From Candidatus Nanohaloarchaea archaeon (GTDB lineage: Archaea; Nanohalarchaeota; Nanosalinia; Nanosalinales; Nanosalinaceae), in assembly GCA_041639695.1 (NCBI GenBank), contig JBEQBQ010000010.1:1-34256 (forward strand): a stretch of DNA of 34,256 nucleotides, in the 5' to 3' direction. The position numbers were made by a program, and so were the translations under genes. A model generated the notes under the pieces. It saw only the letters and a list, made by a program, of their open reading frames with translations. It made no database searches and was not told the DNA's origin. Numbering within the stretch: position 1 is the first letter of the stretch; every line of letters begins with the position of its first letter. Shown here piece by piece: positions 28,831 through 34,256 of this stretch.

Positions 28831-29178
28831 TCAATCAGCCATAGCAAAATCGGACTTTGAAGACTGCTCCCAACCGGATTCATCCGTAACTCGTTCAGCC
28901 CACAGATTGACCGATTCTCCTCTACCTCCTGATAGAATGGTTTCGGCGTAATCTAGAACTAGCTCGTCTTCCTGCGTTAAACCATTATCTTGAACGTAGA
29001 CAATCCCCCTGTTAAATTCTGTCATTACCTGTAGTTCAACGTTCTCTGATTCAAGGGAGTAGTCAGCCTCACCGTAAATGTTCTGAGGGTTAATATGGAT
29101 ATCTACATCCGAACCTACCGGAAGAGAGTGTTCTGTCTCTGGATCAAGATAGTCCTCAAAAGCGTACATCGATTCCAA
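28831..29178 (-). CDS. Hypothetical acidic protein
   Basis: Acidic ORF; TTG start preceded by GGTG. Confidence 0.65.
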   Translation of the reverse strand: MESMYAFEDYLDPETEHSLPVGSDVDIHINPQNIYGEADYSLESENVELQVMTEFNRGIVYVQDNGLTQEDELVLDYAETILSGGRGESVNLWAERVTDESGWEQSSKSDFAMAD

Positions 29179-29232
29179 GATTTATGCACCTTAGAAACGA
29201 TCAACGGCCAATTTTAAATAAGAAGTGAGGGA

Positions 29233-30330
29233 TTAGAAGTCGAAGTTCTCCTCGATGTACTGCTCGACTTCCTCTGATGCCTCCTCCCTCTTTCTCTGGT
29301 GTTCAGTAAGAAATTCTTCGATCTTCCGCTTCGCGATCTGTTTCAACTCTCCGGAAAGCATCTCTCCTGCTGAGTATTCCTTACGGATTCTCTCAAGCTC
29401 TTCATCGTCCTTAATCAGGTGGAATGCTAAAAGTTCGAAGACCATGTCTTCTTCTACGTCTGCACCTTTCTCGCGGTGTTCCTCTAGACTGTCTTTTCCT
29501 CCGGTCTTCGCCTGATCGATTTTTTCCTTGGCTTCCTCTACCGAATCGGTTAAAGCGATGTAGCTCTTGGGCTTGCTGCTTGACATCTTTCCGCCCTGCA
29601 AACCGCGCATGAACTTGTTGTAAGTCGATGCGGGCTTAACCATTTCCTGATCACGGTACTTTCGGGCGACTTCTCGAGTCAATCTTATGTGAGGATCCTG
29701 GTCGATCCCTACAGGAACCACGGTAGGTTTAGAACCTCCGTTTTCCGGGAACTGCGGTCTTAGGATATCTGCGTACTGAACTTGTGCCGAAGACATTTTG
29801 GCCGGGTCCGCGTTGCCATAAGTTGCCTCCATCTCGTTCTGAGTCAGATAACGACCGAACATAGCCGCTCTTGCTAAGTGATCGTTACCCGCCTGTGACT
29901 GGAAGTAAAAATCAACATTCTCTAAGTCTATTCCTAGCGCAACGTAGTTCTTCAGGTATTCCTCGATCACAAGCTCTCTTGCTTCCTCGAGACTCATATC
30001 CCGAGTATTGTATGCTTCTATATCGGCTGCGGCGATAGTAACTTCCGCACCCATCTCCTGATACATCTTGATCTGGTCTACAACACATTTGTGGCCGAAG
30101 TGGAAGACCCCGGAAGGCATTATACCCGTGATCATCGCGAAGTCCTCGTCCTCATCTCTAGCATCCAAAAGTTTATCCAGGTCTCTGTGACCGAAGACAA
30201 TTCCCCTTCTGATGAATCTGTGGTCGGGAAGTCTGTCTTCTATCTCTTCAATTGGTTCTATTCCGAACTTCTCCATCTTCTCGTTGTAGTTTCCGAGCTC
30301 GACGTCGCCCCATGGATCGATATCTGCCAT
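29233..30330 (-). CDS. trpS: Tryptophanyl-tRNA synthetase (archaeal type)
   Basis: DPW, RR.I.FGHRD, G.MPSG.FHFGH, VG.DQDPH.RL, KMSSS; start ATG 30330, one base after the upstream stop. Confidence 0.96.
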   Translation of the reverse strand: MADIDPWGDVELGNYNEKMEKFGIEPIEEIEDRLPDHRFIRRGIVFGHRDLDKLLDARDEDEDFAMITGIMPSGVFHFGHKCVVDQIKMYQEMGAEVTIAAADIEAYNTRDMSLEEARELVIEEYLKNYVALGIDLENVDFYFQSQAGNDHLARAAMFGRYLTQNEMEATYGNADPAKMSSAQVQYADILRPQFPENGGSKPTVVPVGIDQDPHIRLTREVARKYRDQEMVKPASTYNKFMRGLQGGKMSSSKPKSYIALTDSVEEAKEKIDQAKTGGKDSLEEHREKGADVEEDMVFELLAFHLIKDDEELERIRKEYSAGEMLSGELKQIAKRKIEEFLTEHQRKREEASEEVEQYIEENFDF

Positions 30331-30331
30331 T

Positions 30332-30712
30332 TTATGTAGCCTCTTGGACGGTTTTTGTTCGGGCATTTTCATATAACTCATCGAAGCCTTGTGTTTCTTC
30401 ACCGCGAAGCGTCATAAACTCCATTTCTCCGAAAACTGTGGCCCTGTAATCGCTGCTTTCTTGAGGTGTCACGGCAGCTTCATTCTCAAAGTACGAGCTG
30501 AGAGCTCTTTCAATTTCACCGTAACCCGTATTTGATCTCACTCCAACTATATCGTCCTCGAATGTTTGCATGAAACTTCTAAGCGCGTCCTCGGATCGAA
30601 AGCTCGAGTAATAGTGTTCTCCATCTTTCTCTCGACAGACCGCATAGTCTTCATCTCTGAAGTGAATTCCCGGAAGTGACGGTCCTGTTTCGTCAGGAAA
30701 CCTATAGGTCAT
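30332..30712 (-). CDS. Hypothetical protein coupled to trpS
   Basis: Acidic ORF, 11-nt overlap with the upstream ORF, 1-nt gap to trpS. Confidence 0.7.
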   Translation of the reverse strand: MTYRFPDETGPSLPGIHFRDEDYAVCREKDGEHYYSSFRSEDALRSFMQTFEDDIVGVRSNTGYGEIERALSSYFENEAAVTPQESSDYRATVFGEMEFMTLRGEETQGFDELYENARTKTVQEAT

Positions 30713-30995
30713 CGTATCCCTCCACGTACTCTAGTTCTTCATCAAAATCGAACTCCTCTTCTACTGCGGCTTCTGAGGCTTCAAGCACGTTGTAGGTCTC
30801 GCTCTCCGTCAAGTCGTCAAGGAAAGAAGTATTGTATTCGGGTTCTGTCGGATCTTCGAATGAGAGAACTTGCGCTGTTCTACCGTCTGAAACCTCGGGG
30901 AAACCCTCTGTTAGAACGGCGTACGCTCTAGTGTTCGTTGAAGGAAAGCCTTCATCTTCGATTTCGGTTACGTAGGTTTTGCCAAAAACATCCAC
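30702..30995 (-). CDS. Hypothetical very acidic protein; GTG start lies inside the repeated motif (possibly reached by +1 frameshift)
   Basis: Genome-typical acidic composition; no in-frame ATG upstream (in-frame TGA at 31023-31025). Confidence 0.65.
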   Translation of the reverse strand: MDVFGKTYVTEIEDEGFPSTNTRAYAVLTEGFPEVSDGRTAQVLSFEDPTEPEYNTSFLDDLTESETYNVLEASEAAVEEEFDFDEELEYVEGYDDL

Positions 30996-31026
30996 CCTTT
31001 CGAGCTCTAGTCTGTGCTTCCATCAT
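30952..31026 (-). CDS. Putative leader peptide MMEAQTRARKGGCFWQNLRNRNRR
   Basis: ATG after GTGA, TTTAAA box at about 31059-31064; contains motif copy 1. Confidence 0.45.
   Translation of the reverse strand: MMEAQTRARKGGCFWQNLRNRNRR
30982..31001 (-). repeat. Motif copy 1 GAAAGGGTGGATGTTTTTGG
   Basis: Near-identical to 31261-31282 and 33354-33374. Confidence 0.85.
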
Positions 31027-31244
31027 GAATCACGTTAACCAGCAATTTGTAGAAAAAGTTTAAATAGCTTATATCGGCCGATCAACGTTTTTATGATAGA
31101 ATAAACGCTAGTAAAACTAGAAAGATTCAGAAATAGATAGAAATTCGGATAAAACTTTTCAGCCATGATATCTCAAGAACTGAAGCGATATTGAAGTACT
31201 TTGAATCTAAAAAATCGTGGAATCTATAGTTGTCTCTGGGAGAA

Positions 31245-31289
31245 TCATCTAACTTCCGGCTTCCAAAAACATCCACCTTTCAGAGACAT
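31245..31289 (-). CDS. Putative leader peptide MSLKGGCFWKPEVR
   Basis: ATG about 25 nt downstream of TTTAAG (leaderless geometry); contains motif copy 2. Confidence 0.45.
   Translation of the reverse strand: MSLKGGCFWKPEVR
31261..31282 (-). repeat. Motif copy 2 TGAAAGGTGGATGTTTTTGGAA
   Basis: Matches copy 3 apart from one extra T. Confidence 0.85.
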
Positions 31290-31313
31290 AATTATTGATT
31301 CGACGGAAGTTCC

Positions 31314-32072
31314 TTAAATGTTCATCTTCTCCGCCTTGAAACCAAGCATTCCTTCATAGCCGTTAGTCGACATCAGTACCGGGTAGAAATCTTCTTCCGC
31401 TTCAAGCTTTTCTTCTTCCTTCTCAGCGAAGACCTGTCCTTTTTCGATCATCTCAAAATTCTTGGCTTTGAACTCCCAGTCTCCGTCAACAGTCTCATAA
31501 TATTTGAAGTAGTCTGGATTCGAAAGCTCAAATTCTCGGTCTAAAACATCTTCGGCAGCTAAGTAGTTCAAAAGAACGTTGAAAGCGTTTTCCACCGCCT
31601 GATCTGAACCTTGTAAACCGGTCTCTACAACTATGCCTGTTACCTCGCCATTCAAAGTTCCGTTGCTCTCCGAGAAGTAGACAGCGTTCTCAACCCCCGC
31701 TTTCCTACACATCTCTTTAGTCTCTTCATTTAGATGTGATAGTGTTGCGAATGGTTCAGGATGGGATCTCGTTGTGTGAAGATCCAGGACCTTCATGCCC
31801 TCAACTTCATTTAGGATCTTTGCGGCCAATCTTTCCTCATGACTGTCCGTTTCAGGGGTTCCCGGAAAAGAACGGTTAAGATCAGTATCGAGAAAACGTT
31901 TATTCTCTTCTAATGCTTCTTCATTCGCTATTATGAACTTTACAGGTTTCTCTACCTCCATACCGGATTCAAGAAATTTCTCTATAGCTTTCTTACCGCA
32001 CGGTTCATCTCCGTGAATAGATCCAACTACAGCATGTTTGGGTTCGCCTTCTCCTAGTTTCTCTACTATCAT
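31314..32072 (-). CDS. Succinylglutamate desuccinylase/aspartoacylase-family (M14-like) hydrolase
   Basis: HGDE, DLNR.FPG, LDLH, VETG. Confidence 0.88.
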   Translation of the reverse strand: MIVEKLGEGEPKHAVVGSIHGDEPCGKKAIEKFLESGMEVEKPVKFIIANEEALEENKRFLDTDLNRSFPGTPETDSHEERLAAKILNEVEGMKVLDLHTTRSHPEPFATLSHLNEETKEMCRKAGVENAVYFSESNGTLNGEVTGIVVETGLQGSDQAVENAFNVLLNYLAAEDVLDREFELSNPDYFKYYETVDGDWEFKAKNFEMIEKGQVFAEKEEEKLEAEEDFYPVLMSTNGYEGMLGFKAEKMNI

Positions 32073-32095
32073 ACCAAATGATTGAGGGTTAACGG

Positions 32096-33268
32096 TTATG
32101 AATACTTTTCAAGTGCCTCAACCGCCGCCAATTTTTCACCAGACATTAACCGGACGAAAGCACCTCCAGCAATCGAGACATGGGAGAAATCATCGAGCTC
32201 ATGGCCGAAGCGCTGCACAAGCGACGAAGTATGTCCTCCCCCCAGTACTGTAAACCCGTTATTTCCACCGATTGCATCTACAACCTTTTTCGTTCCTTCC
32301 TCATGCTGTTCGAATGCGCCCATAGGTCCTTTCATCAATACCGAATCAGCGTTTCTAATTATAGAAACATATTTTTCCGTGGTTTTCTCCCCGATATCCC
32401 AGGTCATGCTATCTTCAGGGACTTCGCCTGTTTCGAAGTTTCCGTCCTCTGTAGCCAAATCTTCAGGAAGCTCTATCTTCTCCTCGTACTTATTCAGAAG
32501 TTCTTCGAGCTCTCCGCGTTTCGAATCGAAGCCTTTCTGCTCTATCCATTCGCCTTTCTCTCCGAGATCATGTTCTTGAACGATTAAGGCAAGCTCTCCA
32601 GGGATCCCTCCGAGAAGTACTTTGTCGACCTTCTCTATCATTTCTTCGAGCATCCCAATTATATCCGAAGGTTTTTCACCCCCCAGAACCAGGACAGGAT
32701 CGTCAAGTTCATCCCTCACTTTTCTGCCGCTTTCAAGCTCTTTCTCCATCACTGGCCCGGAGTAAGAATCAAGCAGAGGCGTGAAACCTACGATCGAGCC
32801 GTGAGACCGGTGGGCTGCGGAGAACCCATCATCAACAAAGATATCGGCTTCTTCCGCGATCCTCTGAACGAAGATATCATTCGAGTGATCTCCAGGTGTT
32901 GCGTTCCTTAACTCTTCTGAAAGAAACCGGACGTTCTCAAGTAAAGCAACATCGCCCGACTCCATCGAACCCAAAGTTTTCGATAGCTGGTCTCCGAAGA
33001 ATGATTCTAAAAATTCTACTTCTTGACCAAGGTTTTCTTCTAAGTGTTCTGAGTGTTTCTCTAAGGATAGGAAGTCGTTTCTTCCCGGCCTTCCTTGATG
33101 TGCCAGAACCAAAGTTTTTGCTCCTCTCTCGGAAAGCTTCTCTATAGTATTAAGATAGCGTTTGAATCTTACTGTTTCCTGTGGCTCGCCGTTTTCGACG
33201 GGAAGGTTGAGATCTGTTCTGAGAATTACTTTTTTTCCTTCGAGTTCGGCGTCTTCGAGCGTGTTCAT
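32096..33268 (-). CDS. pgk: Phosphoglycerate kinase
   Basis: RTDLNLP, AHQGRPG, LLENVRF, AHRSH, DIG..T, GPMG.FE, GGGHT, HVS.AGGA. Confidence 0.96.
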   Translation of the reverse strand: MNTLEDAELEGKKVILRTDLNLPVENGEPQETVRFKRYLNTIEKLSERGAKTLVLAHQGRPGRNDFLSLEKHSEHLEENLGQEVEFLESFFGDQLSKTLGSMESGDVALLENVRFLSEELRNATPGDHSNDIFVQRIAEEADIFVDDGFSAAHRSHGSIVGFTPLLDSYSGPVMEKELESGRKVRDELDDPVLVLGGEKPSDIIGMLEEMIEKVDKVLLGGIPGELALIVQEHDLGEKGEWIEQKGFDSKRGELEELLNKYEEKIELPEDLATEDGNFETGEVPEDSMTWDIGEKTTEKYVSIIRNADSVLMKGPMGAFEQHEEGTKKVVDAIGGNNGFTVLGGGHTSSLVQRFGHELDDFSHVSIAGGAFVRLMSGEKLAAVEALEKYS

Positions 33269-33352
33269 GCTGAAAGGTTGGTTCAGCTTGTTTTTGAAGC
33301 TTCCCGGGCCGTATAAAAGCCTTCACCCACTATTATTCATTAGGTGCCACGA

Positions 33353-33400
33353 ATGAAAGGTGGATGTTTTGGAATCCCTCAAATCGAGGGAACGGCTTAG
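33353..33400 (+). CDS. Putative Gly-rich leader peptide MKGGCFGIPQIEGTA upstream of glyS
   Basis: TATAAAA at 33312, SD AGGTG at 33342-33346, ATG 33353; contains motif copy 3. Confidence 0.5.
   Translation: MKGGCFGIPQIEGTA
33354..33374 (+). repeat. Motif copy 3 TGAAAGGTGGATGTTTTGGAA
   Basis: Matches copies 1 and 2, on the opposite strand. Confidence 0.85.
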
Positions 33401-33424
33401 AACTCTGGAACCATCTAGAGTTTT
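33399..33424 (+). promoter_or_regulatory. 11-bp hairpin at the leader-ORF stop codon (attenuator/terminator-like)
   Basis: AGAACTCTGGA-acca-TCTAGAGTTTT with two G:U pairs. Confidence 0.45.
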
Positions 33425-33487
33425 CTATACACAACTTAAAAGCTTCAAAAAGATCGGTCTCAACTGTTTCTCCATGAGGTATCTGAA

Positions 33488-34256
33488 ATGAGTACTAGCG
33501 AGAAACTTGTCGAAGTCGCAAAGAGAAGAGGATTCTTCTCACAGACCGCCGAAAGCTATGGCGGTGTCGCAGGCTTCTACACCTTCGGACCAGAAGGCGC
33601 AGAACTGAAGAGAAATATCGAAAACCTTTGGAGAGACCGCTTCAACACTAAAGAAGGACATAGGGAGATAGAGGCTCCTACGATTATGCCGGAACCGGTT
33701 TTCGAGGCTTCAGGACATCTTGAAACCTTTGACGATATGATCATCGAGTGTCCGGAATGTCAAAGCTCGATAAGAGCAGACCACTTGGTTGAAGACAACA
33801 CGAACATAGAGGAGGCTGAATCCTTCCCGACCGAGAAAGTCGAGCAAATCATCGAGGACGAAGACCTTGTCTGTGGATCCTGCGGACACGAACTAGCAGG
33901 TATAGATGTCAACGACTTCAACCTGATGTTTGAGACCAATATCGGGCCAGGCGACTCGAACCCAGGCTACTTGAGACCGGAGACCGCACAGGGTATCTTC
34001 GCGGAGTTCCCAAGGTTCAAAGAGTATGCAAGGAACCAGCTTCCGTTCGGAATAACCCAGATCGGTAAAGCATACAGGAACGAGATCTCACCCAGAAAAT
34101 CAATTATCAGGGTAAGAGAGTTTACACAAGCCGAGCTAGAACACTTCATCCATCCTCACGACGATGAACCAAACCTGGAGAAGGTTGAAGATGTCGAGCT
34201 CACTCTTTACCCAGCAACAGAACAGCAGAAGGATGAAGGCGAGTACAAGCAGATGA
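33488..34256 (+). CDS. glyS: Glycyl-tRNA synthetase (archaeal/eukaryotic type), 5' part (not in the ORF track)
   Basis: Read by hand: MSTSEKLVEVAKRRGFF…YGGVAGFYTFGPEG…ASGH..TFDD…RADHL…FNLMF.TNIGP…YLRPETAQGIF..F…QIGKAYRNEISPR..IIRVREFTQAELEHF; SD GAGGT. Confidence 0.96.
   Translation, partial: MSTSEKLVEVAKRRGFFSQTAESYGGVAGFYTFGPEGAELKRNIENLWRDRFNTKEGHREIEAPTIMPEPVFEASGHLETFDDMIIECPECQSSIRADHLVEDNTNIEEAESFPTEKVEQIIEDEDLVCGSCGHELAGIDVNDFNLMFETNIGPGDSNPGYLRPETAQGIFAEFPRFKEYARNQLPFGITQIGKAYRNEISPRKSIIRVREFTQAELEHFIHPHDDEPNLEKVEDVELTLYPATEQQKDEGEYKQM

Follow-up and report, generated by a model that had tools for sequence, protein, structure and literature searches.

Leaders with a cognate specifier codon precede aminoacyl-tRNA synthetase genes of nanohaloarchaea: a candidate +1 frameshift sensor of tRNA charging

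In prfB, a short 0-frame open reading frame (ORF) is combined with a slippery codon in the P site and a slow A-site codon whose decoding depends on the regulated product. A purine-rich Shine-Dalgarno (SD)-like stretch lies just upstream of the shift site, and synthesis of the product in the +1 frame completes a feedback loop. As shifts in regulatory or leader ORFs, the excerpted text of a 2016 recoding review names prfB, antizyme, the ketolide case of ermC and an incidental shift in pheL (PMC5009743). Likenesses also exist to the T-box regulon of Gram-positive bacteria, where one module carries a single swappable cognate specifier and tandems stand before Trp genes, and to the leader-peptide attenuators (trpL, pheL, thrL, pheM-pheST), where the cognate codons of a tiny leader report tRNA charging. 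Here we analyse a chain of genes ending in trpS on the minus strand of a 34,256-nt stretch from a Candidatus Nanohaloarchaea archaeon (assembly GCA_041639695.1, contig JBEQBQ010000010.1, positions 1 to 34,256; the window), which is preceded by a 24-codon ATG frame containing TTT-TGG. The layout of this leader is that of a regulatory +1 frameshift as described for prfB or antizyme in the excerpts of PMC5009743. Judged by comparison of related genomes, the 24-codon frame would best be explained as a translated leader with a sensor function, belonging to a modular switch that occurs across the nanohaloarchaeal class: a hungry cognate codon would, in our judgement probably, cause a +1 shift on UUU, and the shifted ribosome would then make the downstream protein or be coupled to the downstream gene.

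The module common to the leaders reads (C-A-A-Y-N-)AAR-GGT-GGA-YGY-TTT-NNN, where YGY codes for Cys or Arg and NNN is the specifier codon. Central to its interpretation is the relation between specifier and gene: the specifier encodes the cognate amino acid of the downstream synthetase in 68/68 synthetase-linked leaders (39 in a first and 29 in a second sample), i.e. leaders adjoining, or sharing an operon with, a synthetase gene, and no leader stood before a synthetase of different specificity. The pairs comprise glyS with GGA, serS with TCC/TCT, thrS with ACC/ACA, valS with GTA, tyrS with TAC/TAT, cysS with TGT, trpS with TGG and pheS with TTC. For the first sample, all 68 pattern matches in this genome and 20 relatives were retrieved (6 matches for a reversed control in the same 21 genomes) and the downstream ORFs were named by NCBIfam; three matches were excluded as chance, two because an in-frame ATG is absent (G001 C37, G007 C13) and one lying within a 187-codon frame (G005 C2), and none of them precedes a synthetase. 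The second sample covered 17 more genomes, from which 40 regions of the ~146 other matches were taken for their spread over genera and without regard to content, giving 44 leaders. The specifier also matches targets other than synthetases: TGG precedes trpB-trpA, with three consecutive leaders, as well as an operon that includes trpC, and ATC precedes threonine ammonia-lyase (ilvA). Further TGG targets are M20 deacylases, HisC-like aminotransferases and aspartoacylase-like genes. A sequence-only reading of the stretch had proposed Trp-dependent expression of trpS by a slip at UUU-U: the cognate codon in 68/68 leaders and eight kinds of synthetase supports the sensor half of this proposal, the TGG after TTT being very likely a Trp sensor judging from these pairs, and for the other half a +1 slip would be the best-fitting step.

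Conservation of the module is confined to the ~20 nt upstream of the specifier, C-A-A-Y-N-A-A-R-GGUGGA-YGY-UUU; no conservation was found at the positions after the specifier among the 65 leaders retained in the first sample. In this genome of 0.97 Mb, RGGTGGAYGYTTT occurs in 8 copies, every one within a tiny ATG frame, and an nhmmer profile gave 8 matches at 12.9-17.7 bits with the next best at 6.9; a relaxed motif search of the genome returned no additional copies. The synonymous choice is fixed: short ATG frames of this genome that could read GGN-GGN-YGY-TTY contain only GGT-GGA-...-TTT, and after GGTGGAYGY the triplet TTT follows 8 times and every other triplet at most twice. As far as codon choice can tell, the constraint is on the RNA and not on the peptide. 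Across the class, 57/70 genomes carry the pattern (~214 matches vs 12 for the control; the phylum is represented in the genome set by the same 70 genomes), with 46/49 genomes in family f1, 8/8 in f4 and 2/10 in f3. No copy was seen in four genera of f3 (8 genomes with 80-91% completeness) or in f2 and f5, each represented by a single genome, and the motif is present in genus g17 of f3 and in all of f4, which points to loss or a diverged motif in the motif-free members. In a prokaryote-wide scan with one genome for each of 185,579 species (estimated chance level ~139), about one third of the 80 matches listed were nanohaloarchaeal, the rest being single matches in unrelated bacteria. The variants GGTGAG and GGTGGC of the module occur where it is the first copy of a nested pair (L038, L095). 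In Ile and Val leaders, a second, related in-frame motif, KGG(C/R)VLQ, often stands a few codons past the specifier (for example ...GGCF-I-SIKGGCVLQFFQ followed by the stop; L079, L083, L093, L101 and L105 in G035, G038, G042, G045 and G057), which may, by its sequence, be a variant site for branched-chain amino acids with GUU replacing UUU.

The frame behind the specifier provides the second line of evidence. With the +1 frame taken as the one entered by skipping one base after UUU, its first stop lies no more than 16 nt from the downstream start in 60/61 cases, compared to 0/61 for the 0 frame and 7/61 for the -1 frame. In the first sample the values are 34/34, 0/34 and 3/34 (shuffles expect 3.7), and in the second sample, which was scored by the better of first start codon or first ATG equally for the three frames, 26/27, 0/27 and 4/27. 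Stop and start overlap as ATGA in 19 cases (13 + 6), the window glyS among them, and as GTGA in 2. A fused type also exists, in which six unrelated proteins (the 97-aa family of the window, HisC-like aminotransferase, M20 deacylase, 471-aa, 401-aa and IMPase-like proteins) start at the shift site in the +1 frame and a nearby ATG is absent. In 5/5 nested tandems (spacing 58, 58, 58, 58 and 52 nt), the +1 frame of the first module contains the second, which lacks its own ATG in 4/5; widely spaced tandems (256-335 nt) are found in many genomes. Given the +1 stop positions, the fused +1 proteins and the nested tandems, a +1 slip is the best-fitting explanation. Stalling without frameshift, where a shortage of the charged tRNA makes the ribosome pause at the cognate codon and the pause increases downstream expression via RNA folding, transcription termination or mRNA stability, appears unlikely to us as an alternative. 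It would account for a cognate codon in a short ATG leader in 68/68 cases, it has bacterial precedent in leader-peptide attenuation and ermC induction (excerpts of PMC5009743), and in the minimum free energy (MFE) fold of the glyS leaders of this genus, the region of the shift site is base-paired to the sequence preceding the glyS AUG. However, it leaves unexplained why the +1 frame alone is open and stops at the downstream start, why proteins start at the site in this frame and why second modules lie in it; moreover, each leader presents a single cognate codon and not a run, no conservation exists downstream of the specifier and the leader folds are mostly no stabler than shuffles (z -3.9 to +1.4).

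At the trpS chain of the window (Table 1), the TATA box, the GTGA-ttc-ATGATG start, the 24-aa ORF, the 97-aa frame in +1, the 11-nt overlap and the 1-nt gap given by the sequence-only reading were all found on the minus strand, and the chain with an abnormal first start that it had described is real. The acidic 97-aa frame is +1 relative to the 24-codon leader and contains no ATG throughout; upstream it is closed, in its own frame, by the TGA within ATGATGG, and its only candidate start is the GTG within the conserved motif, where the ORF finder begins. A shift after Phe-14 is predicted to give a trans-frame product of 14 + 93 = 107 aa, in agreement with the length of ~107 aa calculated earlier. 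The 126-aa ORF starts inside the end of the 97-aa frame and its TAA is separated from the trpS ATG (30330) by 1 nt, so that the stop/start geometry along the chain consists of an 11-nt overlap followed by a 1-nt gap. In a genome of the same genus, CTATTTAA is kept at the TATA-like element of the proximal leader and synonymous changes in the 97-aa frame start directly after the shift site; the alignment of the 97-aa protein with a homologue from another genus begins at DVFG (30% identity, E 3e-6). Neither the 97-aa nor the 126-aa protein matched a Pfam family, and for the latter a protein atlas search gave no usable match and a comparison with the +1 ORF of another genus no similarity.

The two frames could also be explained by a sequencing or assembly error, or by decay of a 97-aa ORF that once had a normal ATG start (MKHRLELERVDVF...), in that loss of a single base near 31020 would bring the ATG into frame with the 97-aa ORF. 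This explanation, raised earlier as an alternative, can be practically discounted: the same-genus genome keeps ATGATGGAA and both frames, and more than 100 related leaders, standing before other genes, share the two-frame layout. In addition, the Logan contig of one public DNA run, spanning 30050-32863, exhibits no inserted or missing base at the leader, an agreement that lends weak support, since the run is possibly the source sample. For 29000-33800, contigs of one DNA run were the only matches listed, and none came from an RNA run. Logan contigs of run X1 also connect 31003 with 31245 (the two Trp modules) and 33225 with 33352, where the shorter side matches over only 22 letters; they probably stem from leaders of other strains or from joins caused by repeats.

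Table 1. Coordinates of leaders and genes in the window, followed by the specifiers of the module copies in this genome
Feature	Position	Strand	Basis or remark
AstE/aspartoacylase-like gene	31314-32072	-	directly upstream of distal Trp leader
TATA-like ATTTAAG	31313..31319	-	~29 nt 5' of distal leader ATG; identical in same-genus genome
Distal Trp leader ORF, MSLKGGCFWKPEVR then stop	31245..31289	-	kept in same-genus genome
Module of distal Trp leader	31278-31266	-	TTT 31268-31266, specifier TGG 31265-31263
+1 frame behind distal leader, 45 codons	31127..31264	-	+1 stop at +136
TATA-like TATTTAAA	31059..31066	-	~40 nt 5' of proximal leader ATG; read from sequence
GTGAT, SD-like	31029..31033	-	spacers 2 and 5 nt to leader ATGs
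Proximal leader start region, GTGATTC-ATGATG	ATGs at 31026 and 31023	-	
Proximal Trp leader ORF, 0 frame, MMEAQTRARKGGCFWQNLRNRNRR then stop	30952..31026	-	ORF list
Sensor module AAG-GGT-GGA-TGT-TTT-TGG	30982..30999	-	motif comparison
Proposed +1 shift site	30987-30985 and 30984-30982	-	TTT (P site) and TGG (A site)
Acidic 97-aa frame	30995-30702	-	
+1-frame body of acidic 97-aa protein (GKTYVTEIEDEGF...)	30702..30983	-	ORF list, same-genus comparison
126-aa ORF, ATG inside end of 97-aa frame (11-nt overlap)	30332..30712	-	well conserved vs same-genus genome
trpS (tryptophan--tRNA ligase)	29233..30330	-	NF008926 383.5 bits, above cut-off
TATAAAA	33312-33318		upstream of Gly leader
Gly leader ORF, MKGGCFGIPQIEGTA then stop	33353..33400	+	motif + ORF
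Module of Gly leader	33358-33370	+	specifier GGA 33371-33373
+1 frame behind Gly leader, 39 codons	33372..33491	+	stop position (TGA 33489-33491)
glyS (glycine--tRNA ligase), truncated by window end	33488..34256	+	TIGR00389 292 bits, above cut-off; ATG 33488-33490
Specifier GTA			valS
Specifier ACC			thrS
Specifier GGA			glyS
Specifier TCC			serS
Specifier TGG (two copies)			trpS chain
Specifier GTG			two small ORFs; no evident logic
Specifier AAA			endonuclease V; no evident logic

The proximal Trp leader is not the sole copy in the window: the 15-mer GGTGGATGTTTTTGG gives 3 matches with up to 2 mismatches, compared to 0.07 expected. One of the extra copies, both of which the sequence-only reading had missed, precedes the proximal leader by 281 nt, and the other stands before glyS on the opposite strand. 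The first of these belongs to the distal Trp leader, whose TATA-like ATTTAAG overlaps the stop of the AstE/aspartoacylase-like gene; its distance to the ATG agrees with the genome-wide TATA-like peak at -30..-26 from ATGs. The sequence of the +1 frame behind this leader is poorly conserved in the same-genus genome. Upstream of the Gly leader, GGTG stands ~11 nt 5' of the ATG in addition to TATAAAA, and the +1 TGA overlaps the glyS ATG as ATGA.

Several features suggest that the 0 frame of the leaders is translated. An in-frame ATG exists in 62/65 retained leaders, where one quarter would be expected by chance, and the three leaders lacking it are two nested copies and one broken by a masked N. 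TATA-like hexamers cluster at -45..-26 of the leader ATGs (61 leaders), and an SD-like 4-mer is found at -16..-4 in 17/62 leaders compared to 5/62 in a control window, the 4-mer set including GTGAT at the window ATGATG and GGTG at the Gly leader. The 0-frame stops lie 6-90 nt past the specifier. Across the genome, GGTG peaks at -15..-6 from ATGs, which together with the TATA-like peak indicates that leaderless and SD-led genes coexist in this organism.

A cmscan of 29000-34256 on both strands with E up to 1 produced no match to any of 4227 Rfam families, and an 86-nt fold at the proximal Trp leader is no stabler than its shuffles (z = -0.02); together with the missing conservation after the specifier, this leaves a local hairpin masking the GTG, as had been suggested for this site, unsupported. 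MFE folds of the leaders differ between families, and a conserved RNA structure that masks the synthetase start was dropped as a candidate, given that these folds are mostly not stabler than shuffles. The notion of a T-box-like RNA, in which the specifier codon of an untranslated leader binds uncharged tRNA, is very improbable in our estimation, even though its specifier logic and its regulon of synthetase and biosynthesis genes would mirror those of T-boxes and GGGUGG presumably resembles part of the T-box sequence: besides the missing Rfam match, only ~20 nt upstream of the codon are conserved, without a covarying partner, UGGA is constant whatever the tRNA type, and the in-frame ATG of 62/65 leaders would have no place in it.

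CAAAACC was rejected as pairing partner of GUUUU: it lacks covariation with the GCUUU copies and is 3-4x enriched upstream of genes generally, and is thus more likely a promoter-region element. It occurs in family f1 between leader stop and synthetase start, 30-60 nt before the start (e.g. L004 thrS, L003 valS), and often precedes a TATA-like box; AAAACC is 3-4x enriched 30-65 nt upstream of ORFs genome-wide and may, by this position, be a B recognition element (BRE)-like promoter element of the clade. Oligo-T stretches, as putative terminators, between the 0-frame and +1-frame stops were seen by eye in some leaders only.

The proposed shift site combines a UUU codon with a GGUG stretch at short distance. 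The tRNA-Phe(GAA) is the sole Phe tRNA and UUU would hence be read by wobble (in the tRNA set, ARAGORN also reported an odd-looking tRNA-Gly with anticodon ACC). True starts exhibit RGGUG with a 6-nt spacer, at -11..-7, and in the module the distance from GGUG is 5 nt to UUU and 6 nt to the +1 codon, a suggestive spacing by which pairing of GGUG with 16S rRNA could promote the forward position. With the 16S 3' tail ...GGAUCACCUCCA of three relatives, which was used as the 16S rRNA gene is absent from this assembly, RGGUGG can pair at ...CACCUCCA with 5 bp and -7.3 kcal/mol. The same stretch supplies another reading, in which the GTG of the module (G-GTG-GAY-GYT-TT) is an ordinary start of the +1-frame ORFs (VDVF...) and the ATG leader modulates access to it. 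Such a start is present in every copy, is where the ORF finder begins the 97-aa frame and would deliver ribosomes in the right frame to the second module of nested tandems, but we hold it to be doubtful, and less credible than stalling: an SD-like element is absent before the GTG, where -12..-4 is A-rich in comparison to the RGGUG at -11..-7 of true starts, and it offers no reason for a cognate codon in the ATG frame or for an invariant UUU. Furthermore, a ribosome that pauses on the specifier would occlude the GTG, 8 nt upstream of the P site, so that starvation would switch synthetase and Trp-biosynthesis genes off, which is the wrong direction.

In the proposed +1 mechanism, the ribosome would initiate at the leader ATG and read GGU-GGA-YGY-UUU, which would place tRNA-Phe(GAA) on UUU in the P site and the specifier (UGG at the trpS chain) in the A site. 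With ample cognate charged tRNA, reading would continue in the 0 frame to the early stop and the downstream gene would be poorly served; with scarce charged tRNA, the A site would stay empty and the ribosome would move +1. It would then either make the downstream protein directly, as for the 97-aa protein with subsequent stop/start coupling to the 126-aa ORF and trpS, or end on the start codon of the synthetase and re-initiate there, as for glyS. The prediction for the window is twofold: a 107-aa trans-frame protein made in a Trp-dependent manner, after which the 126-aa protein and TrpRS follow by coupling, and re-initiation at glyS that depends on Gly. When synthetase activity or amino-acid supply is low, expression of the matching synthetase, biosynthetic or salvage gene would, in this proposal, rise. 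Leader translation, the shift, the response to tRNA charging and termination-reinitiation as effector are all steps that we infer from sequence patterns. In its general form, the proposal is that of a ribosome-based counterpart of the T-box regulon, towards which we lean with slightly less assurance than towards the shift as such: a programmable frameshift switch of 20 nt, in which one swappable codon would name the tRNA tested and its shortage would lead to a +1 shift into a protein or onto the matching start codon, nested doubles needing two shifts.

A number of observations weigh against this proposal. Genomes of one class are related, so that the counts overstate independence and the eight synthetase types are the safer counting unit. 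Full re-pairing of tRNA-Phe after a +1 slip needs a U-initial specifier, which is found in 32/65 leaders; perfect re-pairing, on which the earlier proposal for UUU-U had built, is thus not supported as a requirement. In the case of the 16S pairing, 46% of same-letter shuffles pair with the tail equally well, and with such weak SD-like pairing a prfB-like stimulator is unproven. One of the 61 +1 stops misses any ATG, in a valS locus with no ATG nearby; to judge from the family alignment, translation of this gene probably begins at a non-ATG codon ~10-17 nt upstream of that stop. The +1 frame of the distal Trp leader stops ~100 nt before the proximal leader, or anything recognisable. TATA-like boxes at leaderless distance stand at 8/34 synthetase starts, mainly of thrS, a proportion similar to that of the genome as a whole (147 hexamer counts for 781 crude ORFs), and at least those genes may therefore also be expressed independently of the leader. 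Finally, a known link between specifier and target gene is missing for the Leu leaders, for AAA at endonuclease V, for GTG where two small ORFs follow, and for ATY where small ORFs, aminotransferases or a helicase follow.

Comparison with described systems shows both likenesses and differences. As in prfB, an early-stopping 0-frame ORF is combined with an onward +1 path, the UUU is invariant and a cognate, putatively slow codon occupies the A site; in contrast to prfB, the slow codon is a sense codon that varies by gene, one module serves at least 8 synthetases as well as biosynthetic genes, the system is archaeal, most copies end the shifted ribosome on the start codon of the product and the role of the SD-like stretch is not established. 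In the ermC leader, where a ketolide-induced frameshift activates the downstream gene, the trigger is a drug and the effector the unfolding of a known hairpin, whereas here the trigger would be a shortage of charged tRNA, the new frame ends at a start codon and a conserved hairpin was not found. The match between specifier and downstream gene (68/68) is a likeness to the T-box in logic, not membership: the ~20-nt module lacks an Rfam match, stands inside an ATG frame and would have the ribosome as its reader. With the attenuators, the leaders share a short ORF directly upstream (ATG in 62/65, TATA-like boxes; presumably translated), but the cognate codon occurs once per module and is repeated only via tandems in place of a run, the absent conservation past the specifier and the mostly unremarkable folds give no sign of terminator or antiterminator hairpins, and an invariant nucleotide module precedes the codon, with a +1 frame ending at the next start. 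For the PA-X shift of influenza A virus, we know of no sensing role. This shift, at UCC_UUU_CGU, is likewise +1, with a P-site UUU followed by a slow A-site codon, as given in the excerpted text of PMC3498833, but it is viral/eukaryotic and uses a fixed rare codon. Termination-reinitiation at ATGA/TGATG overlaps of archaea and bacteria, which excerpts of two papers report as coupling in haloarchaea (PMC6728339, PMC10666635), resembles the overlaps or few-nt gaps at the starts studied here; coupling would be conditional in our case, since the upstream frame can be reached only after a change of frame.

The genes that adjoin some leaders deserve separate mention. Trp and Phe leaders repeatedly adjoin deacylase-type genes, AstE/aspartoacylase-like or M20 ArgE/DapE-like (L050, L025, L060, L044, L047), and in one case an OSBS/N-acylamino-acid-racemase-like gene; from gene identity, the deacylase neighbours hint at salvage of aromatic amino acids from acylated forms. 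A Lys (AAA) leader before endonuclease V exists in two genomes of the genus (L006:2653-2665 (-) on contig 18 of this genome; L021 in G002): in G002 the +1 stop lies 5 nt 5' of the endonuclease V ATG, and in this genome a divergent dapA-like gene stands upstream of the leader. The Val (GTG) leader (L005:3653-3665 (-) on contig 14; L057 in G002) precedes small acidic ORFs of 97 + 104 aa that converge on serS, the first of them being overlapped, as TAATG, by the end of a small T-rich ORF (MTIQQHTTT...); no similarity was found between the 97/104-aa pair of contig 14 and the 97/126-aa pair of the window.

For archaea, the excerpts of a 2021 review give fucA1 (-1) as the sole cellular case of frameshifting, in addition to viral cases (PMC8211752). 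A full-text search of the literature on archaeal leader peptides, synthetase control and frameshifting found no such leaders described. To our knowledge, no means has been described by which archaea match synthetase levels to tRNA charging, and hungry-codon frameshifting has so far been a laboratory effect. If our proposal is true, cellular archaeal genes would have in these leaders their first regulatory programmed +1 frameshift, and archaeal aminoacyl-tRNA synthetase genes their first known control by tRNA charging; should the shift be real, hungry-codon frameshifting would be a natural, modular sensor and the record of archaeal recoding would be enlarged considerably. Placed before at least 8 synthetase genes and before Trp and Ile pathway genes, the module would then define a class-wide regulon (57/70 genomes), whose specificity should be reprogrammable by one codon change, making it useful as an amino-acid-specific switch. 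Many of the +1 frames are likely annotated with false VDVF... GTG starts, or overlooked. Trp leaders occur in tandem or nested pairs, before trpS, trpBA, the trpC operon, aminotransferases and deacylases, and these host-dependent cells appear to watch their Trp supply especially closely.

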